From assembly GCA_963763505.1 (NCBI GenBank), contig CAVXOZ010000009.1:463596-527595 (forward strand): a stretch of 64,000 nucleotides of DNA, in the 5' to 3' direction. Of this stretch, positions 10,912-29,651 are shown one piece after another. The first letter of the stretch is position 1. Each line of letters opens with the position of its first letter. The notes beneath the pieces are model-generated. The model ran no database searches, was not told the origin of the DNA, and saw only the letters and a program-made list of their open reading frames with translations. The DNA is from an uncultured delta proteobacterium (GTDB taxonomy: Bacteria > Myxococcota_A > Polyangia > Polyangiales > Polyangiaceae). A program made the translations under genes and the position numbers.

Positions 10912-12009
10912 CTACTGCAGCGCCGCCCGCACCGTCGCGCACGTCGCGCCGGCCGGGAGACGCACGGACGTGAAGGTCGTCGTCCCGGACGGGGCGAAGA
11001 CGGGCTGCGTGTTGTCGACGAAGCTCGCCTGCGCGTCGTCGCAATCCCCGCCGTCCACGAGCTCGCATCCGATGACGTGGGAGTTGATCGCGTACTGTCC
11101 CGCAATCTGCGGTATCGATATCGTACCCGTGACGTCGTCGCAGTCCGTGACCGTCCCCGTGACCTCCGTGACCTGCCGGATCGCGACGTAGAGTTTGTCG
11201 GCCAAGACCACTGGTTGAAACGGCACCGGGATGCCGACCGGGATGTACGAGTACGAGCCCGCGTCGCTCGGCGGCGGAACAGCGCCCTGCGCCGCGTTGA
11301 CGGTGACCCCCGGCTTGCCATCGTGGTCGGGGTCCGTCGCGGTCGTGACGGTCGCCGGCCAGGGGTCGGTTGCGGGGTTGGCCATCGTGAGTCCGAGCAA
11401 CGCGGCGCTCGCGGCTGCCCGGTAGGTCGCGCCTGGGGCGGAGCTCGTCACGGTCGCGTCGACCTGGAAGGTCGGGAGGAGGTTGCCGGCGAAGAGCGCG
11501 TCCGGAAAGAGCACCCCGTACGCCTGACCGGCGACCACCGCCGTCCCCTGGAAGCCTGGCAGATCGATGCCGCACACCACCGTCGTGTCTTCCAGGCTGG
11601 TTGCATGCTGCACCCGAACGCCCTTGATCCATTGCCTGATCGTTCCGGAGCCCGGCGCTAGAAGGAACGTCTGCAGGTTCAATCCCGCCGGGGCCCAGCT
11701 GACGTCGATGGTGACCAGGCTCCCCCACGTACCCGTGAAGTCGCACGCGACCGCCGCAGCTTCGGAGGGGGTCGAGCCACCGTCACGTCCGCGATCGCCG
11801 CCGCTGCCGGGTCTGAACATACCATCGGGTAGGTCGACGGGAGCTGCATCGGTGACGGCGGCGCCTCCGTCGTCGCTGCCGCTCCCCTTGAAGCCGTCGC
11901 CCGCATCGTCGACGAATTCCTCACCTGCGAGGTCCAGGCCGCAGGCCGTCGCGAGACCCGCGGACCCTATGGCCACCGAAACGAAGCCCGCACCAACCCA
12001 CCGTGTCAT
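10912..12009 (-). CDS. Hypothetical lipoprotein
   Basis: Start MTRWVGAGFVSVAIGSAGLATACG (lipobox) at 12009. Gly/Asp-rich linker and then a Thr/Val-rich beta-type domain. No motif recognised. Confidence 0.55.
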   Translation of the reverse strand: MTRWVGAGFVSVAIGSAGLATACGLDLAGEEFVDDAGDGFKGSGSDDGGAAVTDAAPVDLPDGMFRPGSGGDRGRDGGSTPSEAAAVACDFTGTWGSLVTIDVSWAPAGLNLQTFLLAPGSGTIRQWIKGVRVQHATSLEDTTVVCGIDLPGFQGTAVVAGQAYGVLFPDALFAGNLLPTFQVDATVTSSAPGATYRAAASAALLGLTMANPATDPWPATVTTATDPDHDGKPGVTVNAAQGAVPPPSDAGSYSYIPVGIPVPFQPVVLADKLYVAIRQVTEVTGTVTDCDDVTGTISIPQIAGQYAINSHVIGCELVDGGDCDDAQASFVDNTQPVFAPSGTTTFTSVRLPAGATCATVRAALQ

Positions 12010-13665: not shown

Positions 13666-16600
13666 ATGTCACCGAGCCAACCGCGTCATCTCTACGGGCT
13701 TGCCGTACTTTCGGCGGCGATCCTCCTCGATTGCACGAAGGCCGACGTTCCCCCGTCGAACGGGGGCCTGGAAATCGTCCTCGAGAGCGACATGTCGATC
13801 CCGAAGGACATCGACCACGTGCGCCTGACGGTCCGCCAGCAAGGGCAGTCGCTCTTGCAAGTGGACCGGGACGTGGGTCCGAAGGCCCTCCTGATGCCGG
13901 CCTCGTTCGACGTGAAGTCGAACGGCGATGGCGCTCCGGTCGCGGTCCAGGCCGTCGCCTACAAGAACGGTCAGGCCCGCGTAGAGCGCGACGCAGTCAC
14001 GCCGATTCCGCCGGACCACGTCGGCGAACTGCGCCTTCCGCTGAACTATCTCTGCGTCGGCACCGCGCAGTCGGATGCCGACGGCGGCGTGAGCTCGACG
14101 TGCCCGGACGGGCAGACGTGCTCGCAAGGGGCGTGCGTGACGGCGGTCGTTCCGCCGTCGGCCGTGCCCGCGGTCAGCGCGGGAACCGGAGATACCGGCG
14201 CGGGTGCAGACAGCGGACCTCCGGCGACGGCGGGCGCCGACGCGGGAGCGGGTGCCGATTGCTTCGACGTGTCGACGTGCTTGATGGCGGCCGCGCCAGC
14301 CACGGTCGACGCGGCACACTGCACCGTGACGCTGCCGCCTGGCGCGCACTCGGCCAGCGTGAACGTCGCGCTGCAGTTCCCCATCGGGGGCCCCGGGGTG
14401 TGCGGGGTCGATGCGTGCTGGGTGGTGCTCACGGACTGGACGCTGAAGGGCACGCAGATCCAGCTGCCGCAGGCCGCATGCACAATGGCGGCCGCGCAAG
14501 GGGCGAGCCTGGTGATCAGCACGACTTGCGCGACGCAGACCGACTCGGTGCCTGTCTGCGGGCCGTGGTCCTCCGCGACGACGCCAATCACGGAGCCCGC
14601 GACGGGGGGGCCGATCGGGCAGGCTTGCACGACGGCCTTGAGCCAGTCGTGCGGTCTGTGTGGCACTCAGACGCGTACGTGCGTCGAAGGAAACCCGTCG
14701 GCCTGGTCGGCGTGCATGGGCGAGGGCGTGTGCGCGGCGGGCGCGACGCAGGCCTGCGGCACGGGCGGCACCCAGACCTGCGATGCCACCTGCCAATGGG
14801 GAGACTGCGGCTGTCCGAACGGCCTCATCGCGTGTGGGGCGCCCGGCACGTGCGTATCGCCGGACGACGTTCACACGTGCGGCTCGTGCAGCAACGACTG
14901 CTCGGCGCTGCCTCACGTGACCGGCTCCACGACGTGCGCGGCCGGGGCATGCGCCTTCGCGTCGTCGTGCGCCGCCGGCTACGCGGACTGCGACGGCGAC
15001 CCGACGAACGGCTGCGAGACCGACATCACGCAAGCGAGCCACTGCGGCGGCTGCAACACCAGCGCCAAACCCACGGCCTGCTCCGGAGCGACCCCGCTCT
15101 GCTCGCCCTCGGCCGCGACGTACGAGTGCGTCTCCGGTTGCTCTTCGAGCATGCCGACGCTGTGCAGCGGCACGTGCGTCAACACGACCAGCGACCCGAA
15201 AAACTGCGGGACCTGCGGCAACACCTGCAACCTGGCGCACGCGACCGCGTCGTGCGGTAACGGCAGCTGCGTCGTCGCCGCGTGCGCCGCCGGCTACGCC
15301 GATTGCGACGGCGATCCGACGAACGGTTGCGAGACCGACATCACCCAGGCGGCCCACTGCGGCGGGTGCAGCACGACGGCGAAGCCCACCCTGTGCTCCG
15401 GAGGGACCCCCGTCTGTTCGCTCTCGGGGACCACGTACCAGTGCATTTCCGGTTGCCCTTCGAGCACGCCGGCGCTGTGCAGCGGCGCGTGCGTCGACAC
15501 GACGAGCGACGCAAACAACTGCGGGGGCTGCGGAAGCGCCTGCAACCTGGCGCACGCCACCGCCGCGTGCCGTTCCAGCAGCTGCGCGGTCGCGTCGTGC
15601 AGCGCCGGCTACGCCGATTGCGACGGCAGCCCGACGAACGGCTGCGAGACGGACATCACCCAGGCGGCCAATTGCGGCGGCTGCAACACCACCGCGAAGC
15701 CGACGGCCTGCTCCGGTGGGACCCCCCTCTGCTCGCTCTCGGGAACGACGTACGAGTGCGTCTCCGGCTGCTCCTCGAGCATGCCGACGCTGTGCAGCGG
15801 CACCTGCGTCAACACGACGACCGACGCGAACAACTGCGGGGCCTGCGCCAGCGCGTGCAGCCTGGCGCACGCCACCGCCGCGTGCCGTTCCAGTAGCTGC
15901 GCCGTCGCGTCGTGCACCACCGGCTTCGCCGATTGCGACGGTAGCCCGACGAACGGCTGCGAGACGGACATCACCCAGGCAGCCAATTGCGGCGGCTGCA
16001 ACACGACCGCGAAGCCCACCGCGTGCTCCGGCGGCATGACCTGTCAGAGCGGCGCATGCGCGTGCCCCAGCACCTTCCACTCGTGCAGCGGGACGTGCAT
16101 GAGCAACACGTCGGTCGCCAGCTGCGGCTCGTCGTGCGTCGCGTGCACGGCGCCGACCGGAGGGAGCGCGACGTGCAACGGCACTTCGTGCGGGACCAGC
16201 TGTCCGAGCGGCGAGACCGTGTGCAGCGGGGCGTGCGTCAACCTGAACACCAGCACGAGCAACTGCGGATCCTGCGGCAAGGCCTGCGCGGGGACGTGCT
16301 CGGGAGGGACTTGCACACTCCCGACCGCCACGGCCATTGCCGCCGGTAGCCAGGATTCGTGCGCGCTCATGTCCGACGGGACGGTCCGATGTTGGGGCGC
16401 CAACAGCCAGGGCCAGCTCGGCAACGACACGACGACCGATTCGTCGAAGCCCGTCACGGTCTCCGGCCTGAGCGGCGCGACGGCAATCGCGGCGGGCTAC
16501 CAGATGGCGTGCGCGCTGCTCTCGGGCGGAACCGTCGAGTGCTGGGGCGGTAACGACCAAGGCCAGCTCGGCAATGGCACGATGACGGCTTCCTCGACGC

Positions 16601-17376
16601 CCGTCGCCGTCTCCGGCCTGACGGGCGTCACGGCGATCGCGACCACCGCGGAGGCCGAGCACGTCTGCGCGCTGCTCTCGGGCGGTACGGTCAAATGCTG
16701 GGGGTTGAACGCCCACGGCGAACTTGGCAACAACAGCACGAGCAGCTCCCCGACCCCGGTCACGGCCTCCGGGGTGACGGGCGCCACGGCGATCGCCGTG
16801 GGCGCGGACCATACATGCGCGCTGATCTCCGGCGGAACGGCGAAGTGCTGGGGGTTCAACACGTTCGGTCAGCTCGAAAACGGGTCGACGGCAACGACGT
16901 CGACGCCCGGGGCGGCCTCGGAGCTGAATGGTGCCACGGCCATTGTCGCCGGCGGCAACCACACGTGCGCTTTGATGTCCAACGCCACGGAAGTGTGTCG
17001 CGGAGACGATACCGACGGGGAGCTCGGCGACGGACAGATGACCAACTCGTCGGGAGGGATTGCGGTGAGCGGCCTGAGCGGCATCACGGCCTTTTCCGCA
17101 GGGAACATCCACGGCTGCGCCGTGATCGCGGGCGGCGCCGTCGACTGCTGGGGGGAAGACAACTTCGGGGAACTCGGCAACGGAAACACGGCGCCTTCCG
17201 CGACCCCCGTGGCCGTGTCGAACTTGAGCGGCGCCACCGCCGTCGCGGCGGGGGACGATCACACGTGCGCCCTGCTCCCCGCCGGTGTCATCGACTGCTG
17301 GGGGGACAATGGCAACGGGGAACTCGGCAACGGGACGACGACCCAATCGTCCGTCCCCGTGACCGTGAGCTTCTGA
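13666..17376 (+). CDS. Large secreted modular protein: N-terminal domain, 3.4 tandem Cys-rich modules and about 8 RCC1 (regulator of chromosome condensation)-type blades
   Basis: RBS gggaga precedes ATG 13666; signal peptide MSPSQPRHLYGLAVLSAAILLDC. Cys-rich modules CAAGYADCDGDPTNGCETDITQA.HCGGC... repeat every 106 aa. The C-terminal repeats CWG.N..GQLGNG....S..PV.VSGL.G.TAIA.G..H.CAL are RCC1-like. The antisense 1225-aa ORF is an artefact. Confidence 0.85.
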   Translation: MSPSQPRHLYGLAVLSAAILLDCTKADVPPSNGGLEIVLESDMSIPKDIDHVRLTVRQQGQSLLQVDRDVGPKALLMPASFDVKSNGDGAPVAVQAVAYKNGQARVERDAVTPIPPDHVGELRLPLNYLCVGTAQSDADGGVSSTCPDGQTCSQGACVTAVVPPSAVPAVSAGTGDTGAGADSGPPATAGADAGAGADCFDVSTCLMAAAPATVDAAHCTVTLPPGAHSASVNVALQFPIGGPGVCGVDACWVVLTDWTLKGTQIQLPQAACTMAAAQGASLVISTTCATQTDSVPVCGPWSSATTPITEPATGGPIGQACTTALSQSCGLCGTQTRTCVEGNPSAWSACMGEGVCAAGATQACGTGGTQTCDATCQWGDCGCPNGLIACGAPGTCVSPDDVHTCGSCSNDCSALPHVTGSTTCAAGACAFASSCAAGYADCDGDPTNGCETDITQASHCGGCNTSAKPTACSGATPLCSPSAATYECVSGCSSSMPTLCSGTCVNTTSDPKNCGTCGNTCNLAHATASCGNGSCVVAACAAGYADCDGDPTNGCETDITQAAHCGGCSTTAKPTLCSGGTPVCSLSGTTYQCISGCPSSTPALCSGACVDTTSDANNCGGCGSACNLAHATAACRSSSCAVASCSAGYADCDGSPTNGCETDITQAANCGGCNTTAKPTACSGGTPLCSLSGTTYECVSGCSSSMPTLCSGTCVNTTTDANNCGACASACSLAHATAACRSSSCAVASCTTGFADCDGSPTNGCETDITQAANCGGCNTTAKPTACSGGMTCQSGACACPSTFHSCSGTCMSNTSVASCGSSCVACTAPTGGSATCNGTSCGTSCPSGETVCSGACVNLNTSTSNCGSCGKACAGTCSGGTCTLPTATAIAAGSQDSCALMSDGTVRCWGANSQGQLGNDTTTDSSKPVTVSGLSGATAIAAGYQMACALLSGGTVECWGGNDQGQLGNGTMTASSTPVAVSGLTGVTAIATTAEAEHVCALLSGGTVKCWGLNAHGELGNNSTSSSPTPVTASGVTGATAIAVGADHTCALISGGTAKCWGFNTFGQLENGSTATTSTPGAASELNGATAIVAGGNHTCALMSNATEVCRGDDTDGELGDGQMTNSSGGIAVSGLSGITAFSAGNIHGCAVIAGGAVDCWGEDNFGELGNGNTAPSATPVAVSNLSGATAVAAGDDHTCALLPAGVIDCWGDNGNGELGNGTTTQSSVPVTVSF
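14950..16020. repeat. 318-bp tandem repeat, about 3.4 near-identical copies, inside the 13666..17376 CDS
   Basis: Repeat starts at about 14977, 15295, 15607 and 15919, each with gccggctacgc[gc]ga[ct]tgcgacgg.... The encoded 106-aa modules are more than 85% identical. RCC1 units of 156 bp follow from about 16320 to 17370. Confidence 0.85.
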
Positions 17377-17476: not shown

Positions 17477-18871
17477 TTAGGCGGCCGCCACGGAACGGAG
17501 CTCGCCCGCCAGCTCCGTCATCGACTGGTACCGCTCCTCTCGCGGCCGACGCAGGCACTTGAGGATGACGGCTTCGACTCCCGGCGGGACTTCCTCCTTG
17601 AGGCGCGCCCGGAGCGGCAGCGGAGGCTTGGTCATGACGTTGGCGAAGAGAGCCAGGTGACCATTGCCCCCAAACGGGGTGTCGCCCGCGAGGATTTCGT
17701 AGAGCAGAACCCCCATCGACCAGATGTCGGCGCGCAGGTCCACGTCGGTCGCGGCCATCATCTGCTCAGGGGACATGTACGCCGGCGAGCCGACGACCTT
17801 TCCCATGCTCGTGATCCTCGATCCGCCCGCCTCGTCGCCCACGGCGATCCCGAAATCGATCACCTTCACGAGGGGGCCCGCGCCCTGGCCAGCGTCGGCG
17901 AGAAACACGTTGGATGGCTTGACGTCGCGGTGGACCACGCCGAGGGCGTGGGCCTCGGCGATGCCCTCGCACGCGTCGGCGCACCAGGCGAGCGCCTGCC
18001 GGTAGGGTACGCGACCCTGTGTCTCGACGAGGCGGCCTAGGTCGGTGCCTTCGAGGTACTCGAGAGCGAGGTACGGCAGGGCGCCCTGCGTGGCGTCGAG
18101 ATTGCCGACATCGAGGAGCCGGCCGACGTGGGGACTGTGCAGCCGCATGAGGACGCGCGCCTCGCGCACGAACCGCTCGAGAACCTCCTCGTGATTCCGC
18201 CACTCGGGCAAGAGCACCTTGAGGGCGGCGCGGATCCCCCCGCGGTCCCGCGCCTCGAACACGGCACCCGACGCGCCGCGGCCCAGCTCACGGATCACCT
18301 GCCACCGGCCGGCGATCGTCGCTCCCGGCCCGACCGGGAAAGGCGAGGCGGCAGGACCGGAACCACCACCATCGAGTTCGCGACGCAGGCGCAGCTCGCG
18401 CGCGACCTGCCGGGCGAGGCGCTCGAGCGCCGCGAGCTGCCGCGTGGTGAGCGTGCGCGGACGCGTGTCGGCGACAGAGAGCGCCCCGATTGCCGAGCCC
18501 TCCTCGACGAGCAAGGGGACGCCCGCGTAGAAGCGGATGTGCGGATTCCCCATGACGAGCGGGTTGTCCGAGAACCGCGCATCGAGGTGCGTGTCTTCGA
18601 TGACGAGCGGGTGCCGATGGTTGATGCAGTGACCGCAGAACGACAGGTCGCGCGCCGTTCCCTCCTGCTCGACGCCCACGCGTGCCTTGAACCATTGGTA
18701 GTCGGAGTCGACGAGCGTGATGAGGGCAATCTCGGTTCCGCAGAGGTCCGCCGCGAGACGCGCTACTTCGTCGAAGGCTTCCTCGGCCGGCGTGTAGATG
18801 ATGTTGCACGCCCTGAGGAGCGCAAGGCGTCTCTCCTCGTCGTCCGGAATCGGCGGCTCGATCATGGCCAT
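17477..18871 (-). CDS. GAF domain-containing Ser/Thr protein kinase
   Basis: N-terminal GAF (ALITLVDSDYQWFKARVG...FCGHCI). The kinase carries GRGASGAVFEA (Gly loop), ALK (VAIK-like), HRDVKPSNVFL, DFG and SPAYMSPE. Start is probably MAMIEPP at 18871 rather than 18910. Confidence 0.85.
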   Translation of the reverse strand: MAMIEPPIPDDEERRLALLRACNIIYTPAEEAFDEVARLAADLCGTEIALITLVDSDYQWFKARVGVEQEGTARDLSFCGHCINHRHPLVIEDTHLDARFSDNPLVMGNPHIRFYAGVPLLVEEGSAIGALSVADTRPRTLTTRQLAALERLARQVARELRLRRELDGGGSGPAASPFPVGPGATIAGRWQVIRELGRGASGAVFEARDRGGIRAALKVLLPEWRNHEEVLERFVREARVLMRLHSPHVGRLLDVGNLDATQGALPYLALEYLEGTDLGRLVETQGRVPYRQALAWCADACEGIAEAHALGVVHRDVKPSNVFLADAGQGAGPLVKVIDFGIAVGDEAGGSRITSMGKVVGSPAYMSPEQMMAATDVDLRADIWSMGVLLYEILAGDTPFGGNGHLALFANVMTKPPLPLRARLKEEVPPGVEAVILKCLRRPREERYQSMTELAGELRSVAAA

Positions 18872-18968
18872 CCTCGGGTACCACTTCCCGCGATGGCGCG
18901 CGAGAGCCATCCCGACACACTAAAGCCACCACTTGACAGTTTGGAAGGGGCGCCCAATACTCAAGCCG

Positions 18969-19977: not shown

Positions 19978-21147
19978 ATGCCCAAATTGCGACCCGTCAA
20001 CCGTTACTCGTCGTGGTTCGTGCCGGCGTTTGCGATCTTCGCGGTGGCCTGCTCGGCGCACGACCAAGGCGGCGTCGGTTGCGACGTCGGGGGGCTCAAT
20101 GAATGTGGCGTCTGCTGGCCGGCACTGGGCGACCTGGGCGCATCGTGCGTCGCATCGGACGGCTGTTCTGGCACGAAGGTTTGCTCGGCGGATGGCAAGA
20201 CCTCGACCTGCGCGACGTCGAAAGTCGCGAACGCATGCGGCGTGTGCGGGGGAGCGCCGGTCTCAAGCGTCAACACCACGTGCACCACGACGGCGGGCGT
20301 GGCCGGCTTCTCCGTTTGCGACGACATGGGCGACGGAACGGTATGCGCCAGGACCGTCATCACGATGACGTTCGACGACACGTTCTCCGACACACTACAG
20401 GCGCCACCCCTGCTCGAAGCGCATGGATTTCGTGGCACGTTCTTCGTCAACAGCCCGCGCTTCGATCGCGGCACGCACTACATGACCCTTGGTCAGGTGC
20501 TCGACTTGCAGAGTCGGGGGCACGAGATCGGCGGCCATACGCTCGACCACCCTCACCTTCCGACGCTCCTTCCGAATGCGCAGCGGATCGAGATCTGCAA
20601 CGACCGGGCGAGCCTCCTCGCGCAAGGCCTCGACGTGCGGCACTTCGCGTACCCCTTCGGCGAGGCCAATGACGACACCGAGGCCGCGGCGCAGTTCTGC
20701 AATTACGATTCGGCGCGCGGAGTCGGCGACCTGACCGACGCAGACGGAGGGCGCATCGGCGCCGAGAACTACATCCCTCCCGATCCGTTCAAGATCCGCG
20801 CCGACTCGTCGATCATCGACACGAACACCCTCGCGGACCTGCAGGCGCGGGTGCTCACGGGAGAGCAGACCGGAGGCTGGGTCATCATCAACATGCACCA
20901 CATCTGCGCCACGTGCGGTCAGAATGAGGTGACCGTCGAGATCTTCACGGCGTTTCTCGACTGGCTCGAGGAGCACATCCGAGGAACGACCACGTACGTC
21001 CGGAAGGTCCGGCAAATGCTCCCCGGAAGTACGAAGCCGCCCGTGCTCGTGAGCGGCGCCGTGATCCCCGGCGACGCCAGCGATACGACCACGGAGAGCT
21101 TCTCGCTGCACGGCCCGTTCGAAGTCGATACGGATTCGGAGGAGTGA
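19978..21147 (+). CDS. Lipoprotein polysaccharide deacetylase (carbohydrate esterase family 4, NodB homology) with a Cys-rich N-terminal module
   Basis: Signal/lipobox FAIFAVACSA. NodB motifs TFDDTFSDT and HEIGGHTLDHPHL are present. The stop overlaps the start of the next gene (GTGA). Confidence 0.75.
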   Translation: MPKLRPVNRYSSWFVPAFAIFAVACSAHDQGGVGCDVGGLNECGVCWPALGDLGASCVASDGCSGTKVCSADGKTSTCATSKVANACGVCGGAPVSSVNTTCTTTAGVAGFSVCDDMGDGTVCARTVITMTFDDTFSDTLQAPPLLEAHGFRGTFFVNSPRFDRGTHYMTLGQVLDLQSRGHEIGGHTLDHPHLPTLLPNAQRIEICNDRASLLAQGLDVRHFAYPFGEANDDTEAAAQFCNYDSARGVGDLTDADGGRIGAENYIPPDPFKIRADSSIIDTNTLADLQARVLTGEQTGGWVIINMHHICATCGQNEVTVEIFTAFLDWLEEHIRGTTTYVRKVRQMLPGSTKPPVLVSGAVIPGDASDTTTESFSLHGPFEVDTDSEE

Positions 21148-23120
21148 GCGCCGTGTTCCCCACGAACCCTCACGCGCCGCCCGCCCATGGATCGCTGCTG
21201 CACGCGATCGTGCGCGCCGGGTGTCTTTGTGCGGTCGTCTTGGTCGTTTCGCTGTCGGCGTGTGGCCACTTCCCGGTACGCGAGACACCGCAGGTCCCGT
21301 CGGGCAAGGAATCCCTCTACGCATCGCTCAGCAGCGGCACCATCAAGATTGCCGACGAGCTGCTCGCGAACGACTGGGACATCGGCCCGCGCTCGCCCGT
21401 GGCGCACCTGCCCACCCCTCTCTCGTGGACCGAGGATCCGTTCCAGGACCACTACTGGCGGTTCATCTTCTACAGCCTTCGGCCGCTCAGCAATTTGATC
21501 TTTGCGTATTACACGACCCAGAGGACCGAATATCGCGACAAATTGATCCAAATTCTCGAGAGCTATACGGACATCGATTCGGTTCGCGCGCCCGATGCCG
21601 ACACGTTCGACTATAGGCACGCGGCCGCGTTTCGCGCGCTCATGCTCGTCAACTGCTACGGCAAGCTCGTTCGATCGGGCGACATGCCCGCCGACCTCGA
21701 GCCGAAGCTTCGCGTTTCGATCGCGAAGATAGCTGACTTTCTGCTGGCACCCTACAACTTCGAAGCATCCGACAACCACGCTTTCAACGAGGCGGCCGGA
21801 CTGCTCGCCGTCGGGGCCAACTTCCCCGACCTTCCGAACGCACCGGTGTACCTGCAGTCCGCGATAGACCGGCTCGCGTCCGAGATGCAGACGACGGTTG
21901 GTCCTGACGGGGTGGAGATCGAGAATTCGCCGTTTTATCATTTCTACGTACTGTCGGCCGTCATGCAAGACTACGAATGGGCCAGTACGTACCACGAGGC
22001 GCTGCCCGCCGAGTTCGGCGCTCGAGTGAAGGCGATGCTCGAGTACGCGACGCTCATTCCTTTGCCGGACGGGACCTTGCCGCTCCTCGGCTCGACCGTG
22101 ACGTTCGATCTTCGGCAGCTCGACCCGAGAGTCTACACGGAAGACGACATCGACAGCCTCCCGGATGGTCTCACGAGCGATCAGCACTTCGAGTACATTC
22201 GCACCGCGGGCAAGAGCGGCACGGAGCCTACCGAGCGCAACGTCTCGTTCGCGAGCTCCGGACAAGGCATTCTGCGTTCGGCATTCGGGACGCCGGACGT
22301 GTTCGACGCCCAGACACACGTGACGTTCTCCACGAGCCCGTGGCGCAACAACCATACGCACTACGACACTCTCGGAATCAACCTCTACTCCTCGGGTAAC
22401 GTTCTTCTGTCCGATTCCGGCCTCGGTACGTACGTCGCCGGCGCCGAGCACGATTACTTCTGGTCGACGCGCGCGCACAACACCGTCGTCGTGGACGGAC
22501 AGGATCAGGGATCCGATCCTGCCGCGATCGTGACGACCGGGCTCGTTGCGACCGGCGCCGCACCGTACACCTGGGCTTATCAGTCGGGCGCGCACGGCCT
22601 TTACCCTGGGGTCACCCACAAGCGATCGGTCGTTCTTCTCCAGAAGGACCTGGTCCTCGTGGTCGACGCTCTCACGAGCGTTGCGACCCACGACTACGTG
22701 CAGACGTGGCATCTCGGTGCCGGCTTGCGAGCGGATGTCGAGGGCCTGGACGTCGTCGGTCGAACGGCGAGCGGCGAACCGCTCATCCTGGTACATCAGG
22801 CCCTCACGAACGGCCTCGCACTGATGACCAGCTACGGGCAGGACAGCCCGATGCAGGGGTACCTCTCGCTCACGTACGAGAACAAAGTGCCCAACTGGGT
22901 CCTGGAATACAAGGCGACGGCCCAGACCTCCCGTGCCTTCGTGACGCTCCTCGCCTCCGGGCCCTATGCCGCCTCGACCCCGACCGTCACCGGCCTGGCC
23001 GACGGGACCAGCGCAGATGTCACGGTCTGCGCGGGGGACGCCAAGTACGATGTGTCGATCTCGCAGCAGGCGGCCGCCGGTGAAGCGGTCAGCGTCGTGC
23101 CCTCGGCAAGCTGTCCATGA
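21144..23120 (+). CDS. Heparinase II/III-like polysaccharide lyase (alginate-lyase-like N-domain + Hepar_II_III C-domain), lipoprotein
   Basis: GTG start overlaps the CE4 stop. Signal CAVVLVVSLSACG. DHAFNEAAGLLAVGANFPD...IENSPFYHFYVLSAVMQDY and NNHTHYDTLGINLYSSG are typical of the heparinase II/III family. The antisense 625-aa ORF is an artefact. Confidence 0.6.
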   Translation: MSAVFPTNPHAPPAHGSLLHAIVRAGCLCAVVLVVSLSACGHFPVRETPQVPSGKESLYASLSSGTIKIADELLANDWDIGPRSPVAHLPTPLSWTEDPFQDHYWRFIFYSLRPLSNLIFAYYTTQRTEYRDKLIQILESYTDIDSVRAPDADTFDYRHAAAFRALMLVNCYGKLVRSGDMPADLEPKLRVSIAKIADFLLAPYNFEASDNHAFNEAAGLLAVGANFPDLPNAPVYLQSAIDRLASEMQTTVGPDGVEIENSPFYHFYVLSAVMQDYEWASTYHEALPAEFGARVKAMLEYATLIPLPDGTLPLLGSTVTFDLRQLDPRVYTEDDIDSLPDGLTSDQHFEYIRTAGKSGTEPTERNVSFASSGQGILRSAFGTPDVFDAQTHVTFSTSPWRNNHTHYDTLGINLYSSGNVLLSDSGLGTYVAGAEHDYFWSTRAHNTVVVDGQDQGSDPAAIVTTGLVATGAAPYTWAYQSGAHGLYPGVTHKRSVVLLQKDLVLVVDALTSVATHDYVQTWHLGAGLRADVEGLDVVGRTASGEPLILVHQALTNGLALMTSYGQDSPMQGYLSLTYENKVPNWVLEYKATAQTSRAFVTLLASGPYAASTPTVTGLADGTSADVTVCAGDAKYDVSISQQAAAGEAVSVVPSASCP

Positions 23121-23132
23121 CGCGAACCCCGG

Positions 23133-24428
23133 TCAATCCATCGGGCAGACGTCGGCGCTTCCGATGCGCGTGGGGGGTCTCGGGCCGCATTGCACGACAA
23201 CGAGCGGGTGCGGGTGGGGGTGCGCCCGGTACCCAGGCGGCGGCCCGAGCGAGAACTCCGGCGCAACGCCCCTCAGCCCGCGACGCGCATCGACCATTTG
23301 TCCGGGTGGTTCGAGCTGGTTTCCCCAGATCGAGACGGGGCCGCACCGCTGCGTCGTCTCCTCGGTGAGCTCGACCCCGAGGCGATAACCCCGAAGCGTG
23401 TTGTTCCACACCACGCCCGCGCCGCCCCGAATGCGGATGGCCCAGCCGTCGTAAAACGGCAGGCCGTGGTCTGGCTGCTCGATGAGATTGTCGTGCACGT
23501 CGATCCACTCGCCTCCGACCGCCGATCCGAACTCCGCTCCGTGCGCGTCGATGGCGTGTGCCACGACTCCGCTGGTGACGTAGTTGTTGCGGAAAACGTA
23601 GCGACCGCCCTTGTTCGACGCGATGGCATGACGGCAGAGGGAGAACCGTGAGTCCTCGACGACGGTCGCTTCCGGGATCCCACCGGGCGACTGCTGCCCC
23701 AGGGCGACGCCCGTGAGGGCGTTCGTGCCGTAGACGGCCACGCCGTAGCCGTCGGTCCCAATGGCCGGCTTGTACTCCGCGTAGAAGGAGCAATGATCGA
23801 CGACGCCCCGGCTCGTCCCGTTGGTGCGCACCCCGGCGAATCCCATATGAGCGAAGTAGGAATGGTCGACGCGAAAGTCCTGCGCGTCGTCGAGCAGAAC
23901 GCCGACGTCCTTTCCCCTGGAACCTTCGTCGGCGACGCCCTCGAAGCGCAATCCGGAGATCTCGAAACGGCGCGCTCCAATGACACGCACCAGCGGGCGA
24001 TCGCTTGCGCTGGCCGGAGCCGACACGAGGGTGGCGGCCGAGCCGTCTGCCGTCGATCCCAAGTCCATCGAGCCCGCGCCCGCGCCAAGAAGAAGGACAT
24101 CGTCGCTGCGGACGATGATGGGAGCGTCGACCTCGTAGCGGCCGGCCGGCATGACCACGATCGATGCGGGCCCGGCTCGATCGACGGCCTCCTGGATGGC
24201 GCGCGCGGTAGGCTCACGCACCGTCACGACCGCGCGCCAGCGCCGCGGCCCGACGAGGTAGACGGAGCTCGTGGAGGCAGCCGGCCCCGGGATGCCTTCC
24301 GCCGGTGACATCGGCGGGGGAGCCGCGAACGCACTGCGTTCGGTGCCGGTCGCCGGGCGAGTGCAACTCGACATCAGCACGGCTGCGCCCAGCATGCGCG
24401 GCGCGGGGAACGAGCAGGGCACCTTCAC
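23133..24428 (-). CDS. Secreted right-handed parallel beta-helix repeat protein (pectate-lyase fold; candidate polysaccharide lyase or C5-epimerase)
   Basis: Signal MLGAAVLMSSC. Repetitive xGxxVxxNxF/VxxS beta-helix rungs (VDHCSFYAEY, FRNNYVTSGVVAHAIDAHG, DVHDNLIEQ). Its start overlaps the stop of the upstream OMF-like gene (same operon). Confidence 0.55.
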   Translation of the reverse strand: MKVPCSFPAPRMLGAAVLMSSCTRPATGTERSAFAAPPPMSPAEGIPGPAASTSSVYLVGPRRWRAVVTVREPTARAIQEAVDRAGPASIVVMPAGRYEVDAPIIVRSDDVLLLGAGAGSMDLGSTADGSAATLVSAPASASDRPLVRVIGARRFEISGLRFEGVADEGSRGKDVGVLLDDAQDFRVDHSYFAHMGFAGVRTNGTSRGVVDHCSFYAEYKPAIGTDGYGVAVYGTNALTGVALGQQSPGGIPEATVVEDSRFSLCRHAIASNKGGRYVFRNNYVTSGVVAHAIDAHGAEFGSAVGGEWIDVHDNLIEQPDHGLPFYDGWAIRIRGGAGVVWNNTLRGYRLGVELTEETTQRCGPVSIWGNQLEPPGQMVDARRGLRGVAPEFSLGPPPGYRAHPHPHPLVVVQCGPRPPTRIGSADVCPMD

Positions 24429-25675
24429 GGGGACCCTATCGCCGCCGTCAACGCGCGCACATGCGCGGTCAGATAGGCCTCTTCCGAGCGCATCCGGACG
24501 ACATCGAACCAGACGTAGTCGGCATAGTCCGCGGCCCGGGGAGCGTTCAGGTCCAGCATCGTCTTGGTGCGCTGTTCCAGGTCCGAGCGCAGAGCCACGA
24601 CTTGCCGCAAGCGCTCCGCATCGGCGTCGAGCAGAGATCTGAGCTTTTCGATCGCAACGCGCGCCTGGTCGGCCTCACGCTCGGTCTGGGCCGCCGACCA
24701 TTGCGCGCGCGCGGCCGCGGCACGAGCCTCTGGCGGGCCTTGCGCGAGCCAACCGGTGCTCATGGTGATCCCCACCACGCCGAAGAACGGAAACGGCTGG
24801 TCCGTCCCCAGAAAGCGATCGTACCCGCCCTGGATCGTCAACTCGAAAGCGGACAGGCGGCGCAGCTGCGATTCGACCCGTTCGATCTGCGCCTCGGCTC
24901 CGGCTCGAGTGGCTACGAGGCGATCGACATCGGTCAGGGGCAGGGTCGGCAGATGAAGGCCGGCGAGGTGCTCGCGAGCGTCGGCTTGGAGCTCCCGCAG
25001 AGCGTCCATGCGTATCGTCGCCGCGTCGAGATCCTGCATCGTGGCCTGTCCGATCGCCACGTGTTGCTGGATCTTGTCGACGATCGCTTGCGCTTGGGGC
25101 ATTGCTTGCTGGAGTACGTTCAGTTTCGCGGACCACCCCGACGCCGCGAACGAGTCGGCGTCGAGAGTCGCCAGGGCGCGAATCTGCAGGGCCACCCGGT
25201 ACCGCTGGCACTCTGCGCTGGCGTAGCTCGAGGCGAGCGCACCGCGGTAGAAATTGGTGGGACTGAAGCCAGCGCCCGCGAGCACGCGAGGGTAGGCGGT
25301 CGGCGTTGCGATGTCGGCCGCCGATACACCACCCAGCGTATGGACCGGAATGACGCCTGCCTCGGCGAAGAGCCATGGCGACTTGTCGATCGCGCTCTCC
25401 GACGCCGCGGCCGCGCCGATGAACTCACAATACGCTCGCGACTCGGCTTCCAGCTGCTTCGGCGTCGAGGCTCCCGCCTCCGGTGTGTCGATCGGTCCGA
25501 TCGCCGCGGACGTCCCGAACGAAGACGATCCGGCCCGTGGCGTGGGCTGCGCTGCAGCCGTCGTCGCGACCGCAACCAGGGTCGCGCCGCTGGCCGCAGC
25601 CACCGCGCGCGCGACGACGGCGCGCACGACCCGAAGGCGGCTCCCTCGCAAGCATCCCGGCAGTGACGTCTGCAT
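24425..25675 (-). CDS. Outer-membrane factor-like protein (TolC/OEP family candidate) of a tripartite exporter
   Basis: 416 aa with a signal peptide. Ala/Leu/Gln-rich heptad segments in two halves. The position directly downstream of the HlyD-like gene fits an OMF. No strict motif verified. Confidence 0.4.
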   Translation of the reverse strand: MQTSLPGCLRGSRLRVVRAVVARAVAAASGATLVAVATTAAAQPTPRAGSSSFGTSAAIGPIDTPEAGASTPKQLEAESRAYCEFIGAAAASESAIDKSPWLFAEAGVIPVHTLGGVSAADIATPTAYPRVLAGAGFSPTNFYRGALASSYASAECQRYRVALQIRALATLDADSFAASGWSAKLNVLQQAMPQAQAIVDKIQQHVAIGQATMQDLDAATIRMDALRELQADAREHLAGLHLPTLPLTDVDRLVATRAGAEAQIERVESQLRRLSAFELTIQGGYDRFLGTDQPFPFFGVVGITMSTGWLAQGPPEARAAAARAQWSAAQTEREADQARVAIEKLRSLLDADAERLRQVVALRSDLEQRTKTMLDLNAPRAADYADYVWFDVVRMRSEEAYLTAHVRALTAAIGSP

Positions 25676-25685
25676 TCGGCTCGTC

Positions 25686-26816
25686 CTACAAGAGCAGGGG
25701 TTTTCGTTTCACATGCAGAACGGGTTGCTGCGCCCAGCTCACTTCGCCGAGCTGGAGTTGAACGAGCTCTCCACGCAGCTCGCGCTCGAAGACCGGGTGC
25801 TTTTGCAGAATTTCGCCGTCGAGGAGGGCGACCACCACACCGATTCGAGAGCATCCAAGAACGCCGAGCAGGCGGCACCCATACACCGGGGTTCCAGGGT
25901 GGACTCCGTCGAGGTTCTCGTACGGCGCAAACGCGACCGTCAGGTTCTCCGTGGCTGCCTTGAGAAGCGGCTGGTTTTCGATGGCCGTCAGCATCCGGTC
26001 GTACTGCGCGACCACGGCTTGGTTCGATCGAATGCTCTCCGCGAGCGCGCCTTTCAAGTCGGTGGCGCGCGCCTCGGACACGACGGATTGCAGGTAGTCC
26101 TCCTGCAAGCGAACCAGTTCGGGGCTACCGGCCGTCGCCCCGCCCTTGCCCCCGAGCATCGCCTCGACTCCGGACAGGCTCACGAGCTGGTGCCGTAGCG
26201 CGGCCACGTGCGTCTGAAGCTCGACGCCCTTTTCCTCGAAGCCGTAGTTGTTGCTGGCCATCTCGGCGAACAGATGCTTCGTCGTGAGCATGGTGTCGTT
26301 GTCGATCATGTGCGCGTCGAACAGCTGCTGCACACGTTCGAGCGACAGCTGGGCGAAGGCTTCGTTGGCGGGGCGAATCTGGTCGCTCGCTCGGTCGCGC
26401 TCGCCGTTCAGCGAGTCGAGCGCGTGCAGCTGGTCGCGTACGGCGCCCATCTCGGAGCCAAGGGCCTTCTTCAGCGCAATCTGAAAGGCCCTCTCGCCGT
26501 CGATGGTGCGCTCGGCATCTGCGAGGCGGGCCTTGAGCTCCGCGGCCTGTCCAGCCACGACTTCGCGCCGCGACGATTCCTCCGCGTGACGAGAGCTCAG
26601 GTCCTGCACACGCGGGTCCGCCGCCGTGATGATCATCGGCGCGACCCAGGCTCGGTGTACGAAGTAAAATGCGCACTGCCCGAGGTAGAGCCCCAGGCCG
26701 AGGAGAATCGCGAACAGAATCGCCAAGCCCAGGAATTTGTACGCCGACACGATGACCCGGTTCAGCGGGATCGCGGAGAACGGCGACGGACGGAAGGGCG
26801 TGGTGCGAGCCGTCAT
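25686..26816 (-). CDS. HlyD-family membrane-fusion (periplasmic adaptor) protein
   Basis: Start MTARTTPFRP at 26816 overlaps the GT2 stop (ATGA). One N-terminal TM helix (VIVSAYKFLGLAILFAILLGLGLYL), a long coiled coil and a C-terminal beta domain. The upstream 138 codons of the ORF-track entry are non-coding overlap. Confidence 0.55.
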   Translation of the reverse strand: MTARTTPFRPSPFSAIPLNRVIVSAYKFLGLAILFAILLGLGLYLGQCAFYFVHRAWVAPMIITAADPRVQDLSSRHAEESSRREVVAGQAAELKARLADAERTIDGERAFQIALKKALGSEMGAVRDQLHALDSLNGERDRASDQIRPANEAFAQLSLERVQQLFDAHMIDNDTMLTTKHLFAEMASNNYGFEEKGVELQTHVAALRHQLVSLSGVEAMLGGKGGATAGSPELVRLQEDYLQSVVSEARATDLKGALAESIRSNQAVVAQYDRMLTAIENQPLLKAATENLTVAFAPYENLDGVHPGTPVYGCRLLGVLGCSRIGVVVALLDGEILQKHPVFERELRGELVQLQLGEVSWAQQPVLHVKRKPLLL

Positions 26817-28045
26817 GGGGAGGTTGATCCTGCGAGAACACCGGCGGACGCGGCGTCGGGCCCCGACGGGGGCGTGTGCCCCCGAGTTTCCCAGCTCGAC
26901 GAGTCGAGCGTGAAGAGCGCGAGCGGCGTGTAGAGCACGTAGGTCACCGGCATGATGATGCCGAGCGAGAGAAACCATAGAGGGTGGACGCGCTGCGATT
27001 CGGGCTGATCCCGGACATCGAAGTGATACAGGGTGCCGAGCAGCGCCAGCGTGGCGAAGTGAAAAATGGCGAGTTCGAAGAACGTCCCGCGGACGAGATT
27101 GCTGAACACGACGACTGGATACGACAGGAGCATCGCGAACATCGAGACGTAGTGCAACGTGATGAGTGGATGCCGCTTCCAGATGTGGGTGGCACCGACC
27201 AGGAAGTCGACGATGTTCGACCGACGCCACCGGAGCTGCTGGGAAAAGTACTTGGCGATCGTGTCGGGGGCCTTCGTCCAGCAGATCGCGGCGAGCGTGC
27301 TGCCGGTCCTGTAGCCGGCCTTCACGATCTGATTGGTCAAAAAGCGGTCCTCGCCGTACTTGATGGGCACCCCGAACATCTCGCGTTTCTCGAGAATCGG
27401 CTCGAGCTCGACGAGCACGGAGCGCCTATACGCGGTGAGGCAGCCCGATAGACACATGACCGTGCCGAACGCGCGCTCGATGTTCTTGAGATACTCGTAC
27501 CCGAAGTGGTACTTGATCGCCTGCATCCGGGTGAGCCAGTTCTGGTTGGCGTTCGACACGTTGACGCGACCGCCCACGGCGGCGATCGCGGGCTCCACGA
27601 AGCGTGCGACGAGCTGGCGAATGGCGTCGGAGTTCACGACGGTGTCCGAGTCGACCGAAACGATCAGCTCGGACGTCGCGAGCCTCACCGCGTGGTTGAT
27701 CCCGCGGCGCTTCCCCATGTTGTACGGGTTGCGAAGAACGGTCACCTGCTCCGGCCACCGTTTGGCCGCTCCGAGCGCCCACGTGTAGCTGTCGTCCTTC
27801 GAGCAGTCGTCGACGACGGTGACCTTCAGCTTGTCGAGGGGATATTCTTGCGTGAGCAAGCTCTCGATGGTGTCGACGATCGAGCGGCCCTCGTTGTACA
27901 TCGGGATGACGACCGTCACGGTGGGCTCGTAGCCGGCCACCGTCCTGTCCCAGCGCGATCCGCTGGCTCGCCGGAGGAACATCCCGAGGAAGTACCGATT
28001 GATGAAGACCAGAAGAACGATCAGCGCAATCGGAAAGAGCAGCAT
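26813..28045 (-). CDS. Processive family-2 glycosyltransferase, NodC/hyaluronan-synthase/chitin-synthase-like (QxxRW)
   Basis: Start MLLFPIALIVLLVFINRYF at 28045. Motifs VVIPMYNE, DDCSKDDS, VDSDT, GCLTAYRR and QQLRWRRS with flanking TM helices. This is the hallmark of processive beta-glycosyl polymerases. Confidence 0.8.
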   Translation of the reverse strand: MLLFPIALIVLLVFINRYFLGMFLRRASGSRWDRTVAGYEPTVTVVIPMYNEGRSIVDTIESLLTQEYPLDKLKVTVVDDCSKDDSYTWALGAAKRWPEQVTVLRNPYNMGKRRGINHAVRLATSELIVSVDSDTVVNSDAIRQLVARFVEPAIAAVGGRVNVSNANQNWLTRMQAIKYHFGYEYLKNIERAFGTVMCLSGCLTAYRRSVLVELEPILEKREMFGVPIKYGEDRFLTNQIVKAGYRTGSTLAAICWTKAPDTIAKYFSQQLRWRRSNIVDFLVGATHIWKRHPLITLHYVSMFAMLLSYPVVVFSNLVRGTFFELAIFHFATLALLGTLYHFDVRDQPESQRVHPLWFLSLGIIMPVTYVLYTPLALFTLDSSSWETRGHTPPSGPDAASAGVLAGSTSP

Positions 28046-28367: not shown

Positions 28368-29651
28368 ATGAGCAGCGAACGAATCGGCGTGTTGGGTCTG
28401 GGCTACGTAGGGCTTCCCGTCGCGCTTGCGTTCGCGCGCAAGTTCGAGGGGACGATCGGCTACGACGTGAATCCCGATCGCATCGAGGAGCTGCGCCGCG
28501 GTCAGGACAGAAATCAGGAAGAACCGAGCGCAAAGCTGCTCTCCAGCCGCCTGGGCCTCACCAGCGACCTGGCGGAGCTCCGGGGCTGCACCTTCTTCAT
28601 CGTCGCCGTTCCGACGCCCGTGGATGGGAACAACGTGCCCGATCTGACGCCCGTCGAGCGCGCCAGCGAAGCCGTGGGTCGGGTGCTCTCCCGCGGCGGC
28701 GTCGTGGTGTACGAATCCACCGTCTATCCCGGCGTCACGGAGGACGTCTGCGGTCCGATCCTGGAGCGCGTCAGTGGCCTCAAGCGAGGCGTGGAATTCA
28801 CGGTGGGGTACTCGCCGGAGCGGATCAATCCGGGGGACCCCGATCACAGCTTCGAGAAGATCACGAAAATCGTGAGCGCGGAGGACCCCGAGACGCTCGA
28901 GCGCGTCGCGGCGACGTATGGAGCCGTCGTGGACGCGGGGCTACACCGCGCACCGAGCATCCGGGTCGCCGAGGCGGCCAAGGTCATCGAAAACACGCAG
29001 CGCGATCTGAACATCGCGCTGATGAACGAGCTCGCGCTCGTCTTCGATCGAATGAACATCCGAACCGCGGACGTCCTCGCGGCGGCAGAAACGAAGTGGA
29101 ACTTCCTCCGATTCCGCCCCGGTCTGGTCGGAGGCCATTGCATCGGCGTCGATCCCTACTACCTGACCACCAAGGCGCAGCAGCTCGGGTACCAGCCGGA
29201 AGTCATCCTGGCCGGGCGACGGATCAACAACAACACGGGGCCGTTCATCGCCCAGCGGCTCATCAAGCTCTTCGTTCACGCGAACCTGCCGATCAAGGGC
29301 GCCCGCGTGGGGGTGCTCGGCTTGACGTTCAAAGAGAACTGCAGCGACATCCGCAACAGTCGGGTGCCGGACATCGTTCGGGAGCTCCGGCAGTTCGGGA
29401 TCGAGGCCATGGTGCACGACCCCCTGGTCAAGCCGGCAGACGCGATCCGCGAGCACGGTGTGAAGCCCGTCGCCTTCGAGGAGCTGGAAGGGCTCGACGG
29501 GCTCGTACTGGCGGTCAGTCACAAGTGGTATCTCGGACTTGGGCAGCCGCGCCTTCTGTCGATGCTTCGCGACGGCGGCACGCTCGTCGACGTGAAGAGC
29601 GCGCTGGACCCGGCGAAGCTCGAACGGGGCATCCAGTACTGGAGTCTTTGA
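28368..29651 (+). CDS. Nucleotide-sugar 6-dehydrogenase (UDP-glucose/GDP-mannose dehydrogenase family; TviB/WbpA/WecC-like UDP-N-acetylhexosamine dehydrogenase)
   Basis: N-terminal GVLGLGYVGLPVALAFA Rossmann motif and catalytic GGHCIGVDP (GGxCxxxD). The C-terminal UDP-binding domain is present. Confidence 0.85.
   Translation: MSSERIGVLGLGYVGLPVALAFARKFEGTIGYDVNPDRIEELRRGQDRNQEEPSAKLLSSRLGLTSDLAELRGCTFFIVAVPTPVDGNNVPDLTPVERASEAVGRVLSRGGVVVYESTVYPGVTEDVCGPILERVSGLKRGVEFTVGYSPERINPGDPDHSFEKITKIVSAEDPETLERVAATYGAVVDAGLHRAPSIRVAEAAKVIENTQRDLNIALMNELALVFDRMNIRTADVLAAAETKWNFLRFRPGLVGGHCIGVDPYYLTTKAQQLGYQPEVILAGRRINNNTGPFIAQRLIKLFVHANLPIKGARVGVLGLTFKENCSDIRNSRVPDIVRELRQFGIEAMVHDPLVKPADAIREHGVKPVAFEELEGLDGLVLAVSHKWYLGLGQPRLLSMLRDGGTLVDVKSALDPAKLERGIQYWSL

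Follow-up and report, generated by a model that had tools for sequence, protein, structure and literature searches.

The window analysed here is a 64,000-nt stretch of contig CAVXOZ010000009.1 (~68% G+C) in which a polysaccharide synthase operon ends in a gene for a right-handed parallel β-helix protein. An earlier note on this DNA had taken the protein for a candidate epimerase or lyase acting on a nascent uronic-acid polymer, by analogy with the alginate epimerase AlgG. We describe the gene, its partners and its relatives, and weigh what the protein may do to the polymer of its own locus.

The operon and its β-helix protein

Seven genes make up the locus, in which the β-helix gene is linked to synthase, export, dehydrogenase, lyase-type and deacetylase genes:

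26813..28045, minus: processive GT2 synthase (NodC / chitin synthase / hyaluronan synthase-like; Pfam and NCBIfam), first gene of the operon
25686..26816, minus: transmembrane (TM) and coiled-coil protein, membrane-fusion-protein-like ('MFP-like'), 376 aa with an N-terminal TM helix, second gene
24425..25675, minus: putative TolC-fold protein, outer-membrane-factor-like ('OMF-like'), 416 aa, third gene
23133..24428, minus: β-helix protein, probable lipoprotein, 431 aa, GTG start, fourth and last gene
28368..29651, plus: TviB-like NDP-N-acetylhexosamine 6-dehydrogenase (Pfam, NCBIfam NF011729), divergent from the operon
19978..21147, plus: CE4 polysaccharide deacetylase lipoprotein (PF01522), first of the convergent pair
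21144..23120, plus: Heparinase II/III-like (α/α toroid) lyase-type lipoprotein (HEP; PF16889 and PF07940)

The β-helix open reading frame (ORF) at 23133-24428 (minus) is a real gene, since a public gene call (P0134) has the same sequence and the same start (100% over 431 aa) and its family counts more than 1,400 cluster representatives. It closes a translationally coupled minus-strand operon of four genes, in line with the earlier note: the GT2 stop and the MFP-like start overlap as ATGA at 26816, 10 bp separate the MFP-like and OMF-like genes, and the OMF-like stop overlaps the β-helix start as GTGA. The HEP and β-helix genes converge; only 12 bp lie between their stop codons, and this gap contains no terminator hairpin. 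At the other end, the mechanical GT2 ORF reaches 28369 (108 codons further upstream), abutting the divergent dehydrogenase start at 28368; because orthologues measure 403-416 aa, the true start is probably the ATG at 28045, which gives 410 aa and probably leaves ~320 bp of intergenic regulatory region before the dehydrogenase gene.

The β-helix fold, first read from periodic rung motifs, is borne out by the AlphaFold2 (AF2) model. Built on a 57-sequence alignment (predicted local distance difference test, pLDDT, 88.4; predicted template modelling score, pTM, 0.86), it runs from a cap helix (75-85) through ~9 three-stranded rungs to a small C-terminal hairpin, with residues 1-55 disordered (pLDDT below 50-55). 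Seven periodic turn motifs (VDHSYF, VDHCSF, VEDSRF, FRNNYV, VHDNLI, VWNNTL and IWGNQL) are present, and the Pfam Beta_helix model (PF13229) matches above its gathering cut-off, which places the protein in that superfamily. Its parts, with several conserved residues on the parallel β-sheet 1 (PB1) strands, are as follows:

24363..24428, minus: signal peptide, residues 1-22, lipobox-like ...VLMSSC22, read from the sequence
24264..24362, minus: Pro/Ala/Ser-rich tether, residues 23-55, predicted disordered (pLDDT)
23244..24263, minus: right-handed parallel β-helix domain, residues ~56-395 (DSSP of the model, rung motifs)
23628..23633, minus: rung 5, PB1 strand: R266-H267 (conservation 98-99%); aligns with the RbmB K225/K227 strand (9ozd HMM alignment)
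23538..23549, minus: rung 6, PB1 strand: motif D294-A-H296-G (conservation D 98%, H 97%); RbmB E253 falls on D294
23136..23243, minus: C-terminal tail with conserved Y400...[Y/H]405-P-H407-P-L and a Cys414/Cys428 hairpin (alignment, conservation)

In the model the tail forms strands at 420-422 and 425-429; by alignment, the Cys414/Cys428 pair is restricted to the closest homologues. Secretion, which the earlier note had also claimed, can be specified further. The N-terminus (MLGAAVLMSSC22) is a hydrophobic stretch ending in Cys22, a lipoprotein-type signal whose lipobox is atypical (Met at -3), and homologues carry canonical lipoboxes at the aligned site (LAGC, VVGC, LTAC and LVAC; FASC is also seen). 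On these two grounds the protein appears exported and probably lipid-anchored via its Pro/Ala-rich tether. HEP (lipobox LSAC) and the CE4 deacetylase (lipobox FAVAC) bear such signals too, giving lipoprotein-type signals on all three polymer-modifying proteins of the locus. HEP keeps the NH, Y and HTHYD motifs; the deacetylase has a Cys-rich N-terminal segment of ~100 aa (CGVC... repeats) ahead of its catalytic domain.

The best solved relatives of the GT2 are hyaluronan synthases (HAS; 8smm, E 4e-24; Chlorella virus HAS, E 7e-18). The dehydrogenase scores 443 bits on the NF011729 model of TviB (UDP-GlcNAc 6-dehydrogenase), under its cut-off of 592, while UDP-glucose dehydrogenase models give it 30-138 bits; as it is closest to TviB, the uronate of the locus is more likely an N-acetylhexosaminuronate than glucuronic acid (GlcA). 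The uronic-acid polymer of the earlier note is supported in that the locus encodes a sugar 6-dehydrogenase and HEP; its GlcA type and the GlcA-to-iduronic acid conversion put forward with it are not supported. Paired with the HAS/chitin-synthase-like GT2, the TviB-like dehydrogenase points to a polymer of chitin-like or hyaluronan-like kind with N-acetylhexosaminuronate in it.

The export arrangement, GT2 to TM/coiled-coil to TolC-fold protein, is unusual for synthase-dependent secretion: a porin and a tetratricopeptide-repeat scaffold are usual in such exopolysaccharide (EPS) systems, whereas this locus has a putative TolC-fold protein instead. Pfam and NCBIfam searches gave no family match for the 376-aa MFP-like protein. 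The TolC-fold protein has no Pfam match and 8 detectable homologues only, and is found almost solely with the clade of the window's β-helix protein. The literature we found holds no description of TM/coiled-coil plus TolC-fold export in synthase-dependent secretion, and a literature search for a myxobacterial HAS, dehydrogenase and heparinase locus returned nothing relevant.

A large family in varied gene contexts

A word-indexed search returned 131 relatives of the β-helix protein, all unnamed or labelled 'right-handed parallel beta-helix', and an exhaustive profile search returned 1,421 50%-cluster representatives at E <= 1e-30 and 5,446 at E <= 1e-10. By source, the nearest relatives that bear a name are Myxococcaceae or 'Deltaproteobacteria' metagenome-assembled genomes. 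Many of the profile-matched members are multi-domain and some have several β-helix copies; two giant proteins of ~5,100 aa (P0135 and P0200) contain up to six matched stretches. Among 128 members, down to 25% identity, ten residues are at least 95% conserved (Y228, E258, R266, H267, R280, D294, H296, R334, Y400 and H407); K220, the sole Lys with partial conservation in the family, is kept in 64% and D226 in 27%. Three conserved Arg and two His contrast with one groove-facing invariant carboxylate, and rung periodicity suggests that D294, H296, N272, R332 and R334 face outward. Because the polar set is so conserved across these relatives, the protein is, judged by its sequence, an enzyme. We rejected an adhesin or passenger domain, the outcome against which the earlier note had warned, on the strength of this set.

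All seven genes recur in relatives at 77% and 71% identity. The gene of a 54%-identity relative is divergent from adjoining GT2 and MFP-like genes, and a HEP-like gene adjoins the β-helix gene in relatives at 62%, 52% and 45%. HEP co-occurs with the β-helix gene in loci L007, L012, L082 and L083, joined in L012 by a deacetylase-like gene; L012, L007 and L083 have no GT2 within 10 kb of the β-helix and HEP genes. The trio of GT2, MFP-like and OMF-like genes recurs in L004, L081 and L082, with the MFP-like gene adjoining the GT2 gene in each. The operon of L081 is a distant version (GT2 59%, MFP-like 33% and OMF-like 35% identity) without a β-helix gene, whose fourth position is taken by an unrelated 240-aa secreted protein (11140-11862) that matches no Pfam family; the ~10 kb on each side of the 240-aa gene contain neither a dehydrogenase nor a HEP or CE4 gene. 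Since this distant trio goes without all four, the β-helix gene is an accessory of the export trio that travels with uronate and acetyl genes.

Members at 27-33% identity (Glaciimonas, Pseudoduganella) belong to Wzy-type EPS clusters that also encode WecG, a sugar dehydrogenase, GT4s and either a CE4 enzyme or an AT3-SGNH acetyltransferase. In Oxalobacteraceae (L073, L069, L066, L068 and L079) an N-terminal CBM5/12-like carbohydrate-binding module (CBM) and a Thr/Pro linker precede the β-helix; Pfam confirms CBM5/12 only for Duganella L073 (26.5 bits), and did not for Pseudoduganella L069. An Aquimarina member (L060) has two F5/8 type C (discoidin) domains and a type IX secretion system (T9SS) sorting tail, and other members carry Ig domains or a sialidase-like CBM. 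Such CBM and secretion-tag fusions resemble depolymerase architecture, and together with the Wzy-type clusters they speak more for a depolymerase than for an epimerase. In its behaviour the family is like a secreted enzyme that cleaves glycans and would have been recruited by several lineages into acidic, N-acetylated EPS loci.

The contigs of L012, L014 and L015 are labelled 'uncultured Rickettsiales'; at 67-71% G+C and with myxobacteria-like genes, these bins are probably mis-assigned.

Comparison with characterised β-helices

Queried with the model, Foldseek ranks the PL31 lyase (6kfn) first, RbmB second and AlgE6 twentieth; AlgG, the comparison that the earlier note had suggested, falls outside the top 50. 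A single-sequence search of PDB sequences gave no significant match, whereas the 57-member profile found RbmB (E 2.6e-10, positions 41-329) as its sole near-full-length match. Homology to RbmB-type EPS lyases is detectable over the whole helix in this profile search.

RbmB, the Vibrio cholerae VPS (Vibrio polysaccharide) lyase (PDB 9OZD/9OZL; PMC12993940), is likewise a single-domain right-handed β-helix (~370 aa) encoded within the cell's own EPS locus, and its substrate contains N-acetylhexosaminuronate, as we infer for the protein studied here. The hidden Markov model (HMM) alignment, of low confidence in this region, sets RbmB C-K225-L-K227-L-S-A-R231 against C265-R266-H267-A-I-A-S-N272, so that K225 meets R266 and K227 meets A268; RbmB E253 meets D294 and R167 meets R201. 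Conserved residues of the family are thereby placed on the PB1 strands of RbmB K227, R231 and E253. The catalytic base of RbmB is Lys227, with Glu253 as its partner (PMC12993940); this pair is not retained in the alignment, which has Ala at K227 and Asp at E253. The query offers Ala or His for Lys227 and Arg for Lys225. From the alignment of the RbmB catalytic strand and E253 to conserved residues, the conserved set appears to share its PB1 groove with the RbmB active site while differing in the residues themselves: Lys, Glu and Ca in RbmB, His, Asp, Tyr and Arg in the query. The two proteins are ~13-19% identical, and RbmB, which is no lipoprotein, serves a Wzy-type pathway.

The PL31 alginate lyase PsAly (PDB 6KFN; PMC6796002) is, like the query, a small β-helix (10 coils in PsAly) that has a cap at its N-terminus and a ladder of Asn residues. 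Its likeness to the query is a strong match of fold alone, 6kfn being absent among family-profile matches at E up to 10. PsAly differs in being a catabolic enzyme of a Gram-positive bacterium, and its catalytic Tyr184/Lys221 and Glu/Asp cation sites (PMC6796002) are not recognisable in the query. The periplasmic Vi-antigen lyase VexL (PDB 6FI2; PMC6003464) is comparable in setting, being an exported, metal-independent β-helix endolyase of a PL1 subfamily with termini stabilised by disulfides, from a locus that makes a TviB-dependent poly-N-acetylhexosaminuronate, the Vi antigen (PMC6003464). It differs in its ABC-transporter pathway and in using Arg232 as base, and its sequence relation to the query is undetectable.

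For the alginate epimerases the resemblance stops at the N-terminal cap. Profile matches to AlgE4 and AlgE6 (E ~1e-7 to 1e-8) are restricted to it, and hhalign against the AlgE4 A-module pairs residues 72-170 with AlgE4 16-115 only (probability 95.8%; the AlgE4 sequence used was checked against fragments in the PDB-sequence matches). The homology does not extend across the catalytic module, and the analogy with AlgG is not supported on this point. AlgG and AlgE are defined by a DPH(D/E) motif that includes the catalytic His and follows a catalytic Tyr (PMC4444821). The query has no DPH[DE] anywhere, and its sole D-x-H is D294-A-H296. In the N-cap register AlgE4 Y149-G-F-D-P-H-E155 falls on residues 196-204 (GFAGVRTNG), variable in the family, so the motif is absent where it would be expected, with D294-A-H296-G three rungs further. 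The AlgE4/AlgE6/AlgE7-type enzymes and AlgG share with the query the homologous cap and Tyr, His and Asp on PB1, and AlgG, too, comes from a synthase-dependent export operon that also encodes a lyase of its own; they differ in having 12 or more rungs against ~9, whereas the query is predicted to be lipid-anchored, would act on a substrate other than mannuronan, and lacks both DPH(D/E) at the canonical rung and alignment past the cap. Of the epimerase-or-lyase proposal, the results support an exported β-helix enzyme with uronate-acting relatives and count against an epimerase of AlgG type.

Two other assignments were rejected. Membership of PL6, PL9 or PL1 finds no sequence signal, and the Lys, Arg and Ca residues of these families are not conserved in the query; a NosD-like role in copper maturation scores 12.6 bits against a cut-off of 300, with no nos genes nearby (NCBIfam matches to NosD and beta_helix_1 were both sub-threshold). 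As far as the alignments go, the conserved residue set differs from those of all known β-helix lyase, epimerase and hydrolase families.

Proposed cleavage of the cell's own polymer and its alternatives

We tentatively favour, at a probability of roughly 0.45, the reading that the β-helix protein cleaves the acidic polymer of its own locus, most likely by β-elimination. The TviB-like dehydrogenase would supply N-acetylhexosaminuronate, the HAS/NodC-like GT2 would polymerise and translocate the chain, and the TM/coiled-coil and TolC-fold proteins would take it outward, after which three lipoproteins (CE4 deacetylase, HEP lyase and β-helix protein) would work on it. The β-helix enzyme, lipid-anchored and either periplasm-facing or surface-exposed, would carry out metal-independent β-elimination in a PB1 groove built from D294/H296 with R266/H267, N272, R334 and Y228, abstracting H5 beside a carboxylate neutralised by Arg or Asn. 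In this way the enzyme would regulate the length of the chain or its release, a part that RbmB, VexL, WceF and AlgL play for the polymers they act on. The nearest characterised relatives (RbmB, PL31 and AlgE) all abstract H5 from uronates, which we count in favour of a lyase. Also on its side are the near-full-length profile match to RbmB with the apparently shared groove, the conserved polar set, the synteny with the GT2, HEP and deacetylase genes, the distant export trio that goes without the gene, and the remote members found in Wzy-type clusters or fused to CBMs. Fold, operon position, export signal, polar set, remote homology to RbmB and gene linkage are results of the analysis; the substrate, a lyase instead of a hydrolase chemistry and the identity of the catalytic residues we infer. 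To our knowledge, every synthase-dependent EPS operon encodes a glycanase or lyase (AlgL, BcsZ, PslG, PelA or the PgaB C-terminal domain); the likeness of these enzymes to the query is one of role, a polymer-cleaving enzyme encoded with a processive synthase and export parts, none of them being a β-helix. The role of an EPS-locus β-helix depolymerase is itself already known, β-helix lyases or glycanases of EPS or capsular polysaccharide loci including RbmB (PMC12993940), VexL (PMC6003464) and WceF (PMC7949094).

Several points weigh against polymer cleavage of this kind. The family has no characterised member, and the activity is read from sequence and context. The RbmB Lys, the PL31 Tyr/Lys, the VexL Arg and the PL1/6/9 Ca sites are not conserved, so the proposed mechanism is without a direct template. 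The groove is placed by rung register and by an HMM alignment of low confidence in the catalytic region, and rung periodicity allows that Y228 and H267 form part of an aromatic ladder in the helix interior, which would make them structural. Members at 36-50% identity mostly stand alone, with no polysaccharide genes nearby. A second lyase, finally, is not required, because HEP is already a plausible lyase of the locus.

Of the alternatives, a glycoside hydrolase holds up best, unlikely as we consider it: a β-helix endoglycanase using the carboxylates D294, E258 and D/E310, in the manner of WceF, GH28, GH87 or tailspike depolymerases. In GH28 polygalacturonases consecutive PB1 strands bear NTD, DD, G/SHG and RIK motifs, and a GH28-like series of 'TD / .. 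/ AHG / RIR' can be read here (TD226, AH296G and R332-I-R334), together with a weak match to PF12708 (rhamnogalacturonase A/epimerase-like; 21.6, below the cut-off of 27). The 'DD' rung is, however, 'RH' (R266-H267), which leaves the GH28 set incomplete, and D226 has the low conservation given above; three Arg, two His and a single groove-facing invariant carboxylate would be an atypical hydrolase set. Most family members have no uronate context, and the CBM5/12 and discoidin fusions of remote members bind neutral or GlcNAc-type (N-acetylglucosamine) glycans, as might suit a hydrolase; against this, the best relatives by sequence and by Foldseek are lyases, and the occurrence of the gene varies together with that of the dehydrogenase and HEP genes.

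A polymer-level C5-epimerase strikes us as somewhat less probable. Such an enzyme would abstract H5 of a hexuronate or N-acetylhexosaminuronate in the groove and re-protonate the opposite face during export, like AlgG or AlgE. Epimerases and lyases share their first steps and so are inseparable by sequence (PMC4444821), and the conserved Tyr, His, Asp and Arg are the residue kinds of AlgE4 and AlgG (PMC4444821). The AlgE4- and AlgE6-homologous cap and the D-x-H motif on PB1 point the same way, and with HEP as the separate lyase, a β-helix epimerase beside an α/α toroid lyase would mirror AlgG and AlgL. This reading has to contend with the absence of DPH(D/E) and its preceding Tyr from the canonical rung (the poorly conserved GFAGVRTNG), with a DAHG motif three rungs away and shifted along the strand, and with a similarity to epimerases that ends at the cap. 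Members also occur in Wzy-type clusters, or with CBMs or T9SS tails, settings in which no polymer-level epimerase is known.

More doubtful still is a bolder form of this idea, in which the protein would be the first C5-epimerase, or epimerase/lyase, outside alginate, acting on a glycosaminoglycan-like, N-acetylhexosaminuronate-rich chain made by a HAS/chitin-synthase-like GT2 and exported by a TolC-type route. If true, its catalytic set (Y228, H267, D294, H296 and R334) would be unrelated to DPHD, and with CE4 and HEP it would amount to a bacterial analogue of the way heparan- or dermatan-type chains are edited after polymerisation, here by three lipoproteins.

It is improbable that the protein, with HEP and CE4, serves the catabolism of a foreign polysaccharide and merely sits beside a synthase operon on whose product it does not act. 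The loci in which β-helix and HEP genes (with or without a deacetylase) occur with no GT2 within 10 kb (L012, L007 and L083), and the many stand-alone secreted members, would fit such a role. The GTGA overlap with the export gene and the conserved order recur, however, at 71-77% identity, the relocated gene of the 54%-identity relative still lies beside the GT2, and the window locus has no transporter or sugar-catabolism genes. A non-catalytic polymer-binding or scaffold lipoprotein that leads the chain towards its outer-membrane channel, comparable to the β-helix adhesin PfbA or the scaffolds AlgK and AlgX, is hardly probable: it would draw on the translational coupling to the TolC-fold gene and on the near-exclusive pairing of that partner with the same clade, yet at least 95% conservation of His, Asp, Tyr and Arg across phyla and varied gene contexts speaks for chemistry rather than a lineage-specific contact, the export trio occurs without the β-helix gene, and family members are fused to CBMs.

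If the protein cleaves its own polymer as favoured here, it would join the polymer-cleaving and editing enzymes of EPS loci, which govern the length and release of chains and the dispersal of biofilms, and which attract interest as tools against biofilms. The family is very large (1,421 cluster representatives at E <= 1e-30) for one without a characterised member; characterising a single one would allow thousands of proteins to be annotated, might lead to a new CAZy family and would test epimerase chemistry outside alginate. The locus itself is a defined source of substrate, with its HAS/NodC-like synthase and TviB-like dehydrogenase. In the literature we found there is no description of this family or its putative catalytic residues, and none of the trio of lipoproteins or of a HAS-like synthase with a TolC-fold partner.

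Upstream of the locus, the window encodes a 1,236-aa RCC1-repeat protein with Cys-rich Stig1/CPL1-like segments (13666-17376, plus) and a GAF-Ser/Thr kinase (17477-18910, minus). A 1,225-aa mirror ORF opposite the RCC1 gene is a high-GC artefact.

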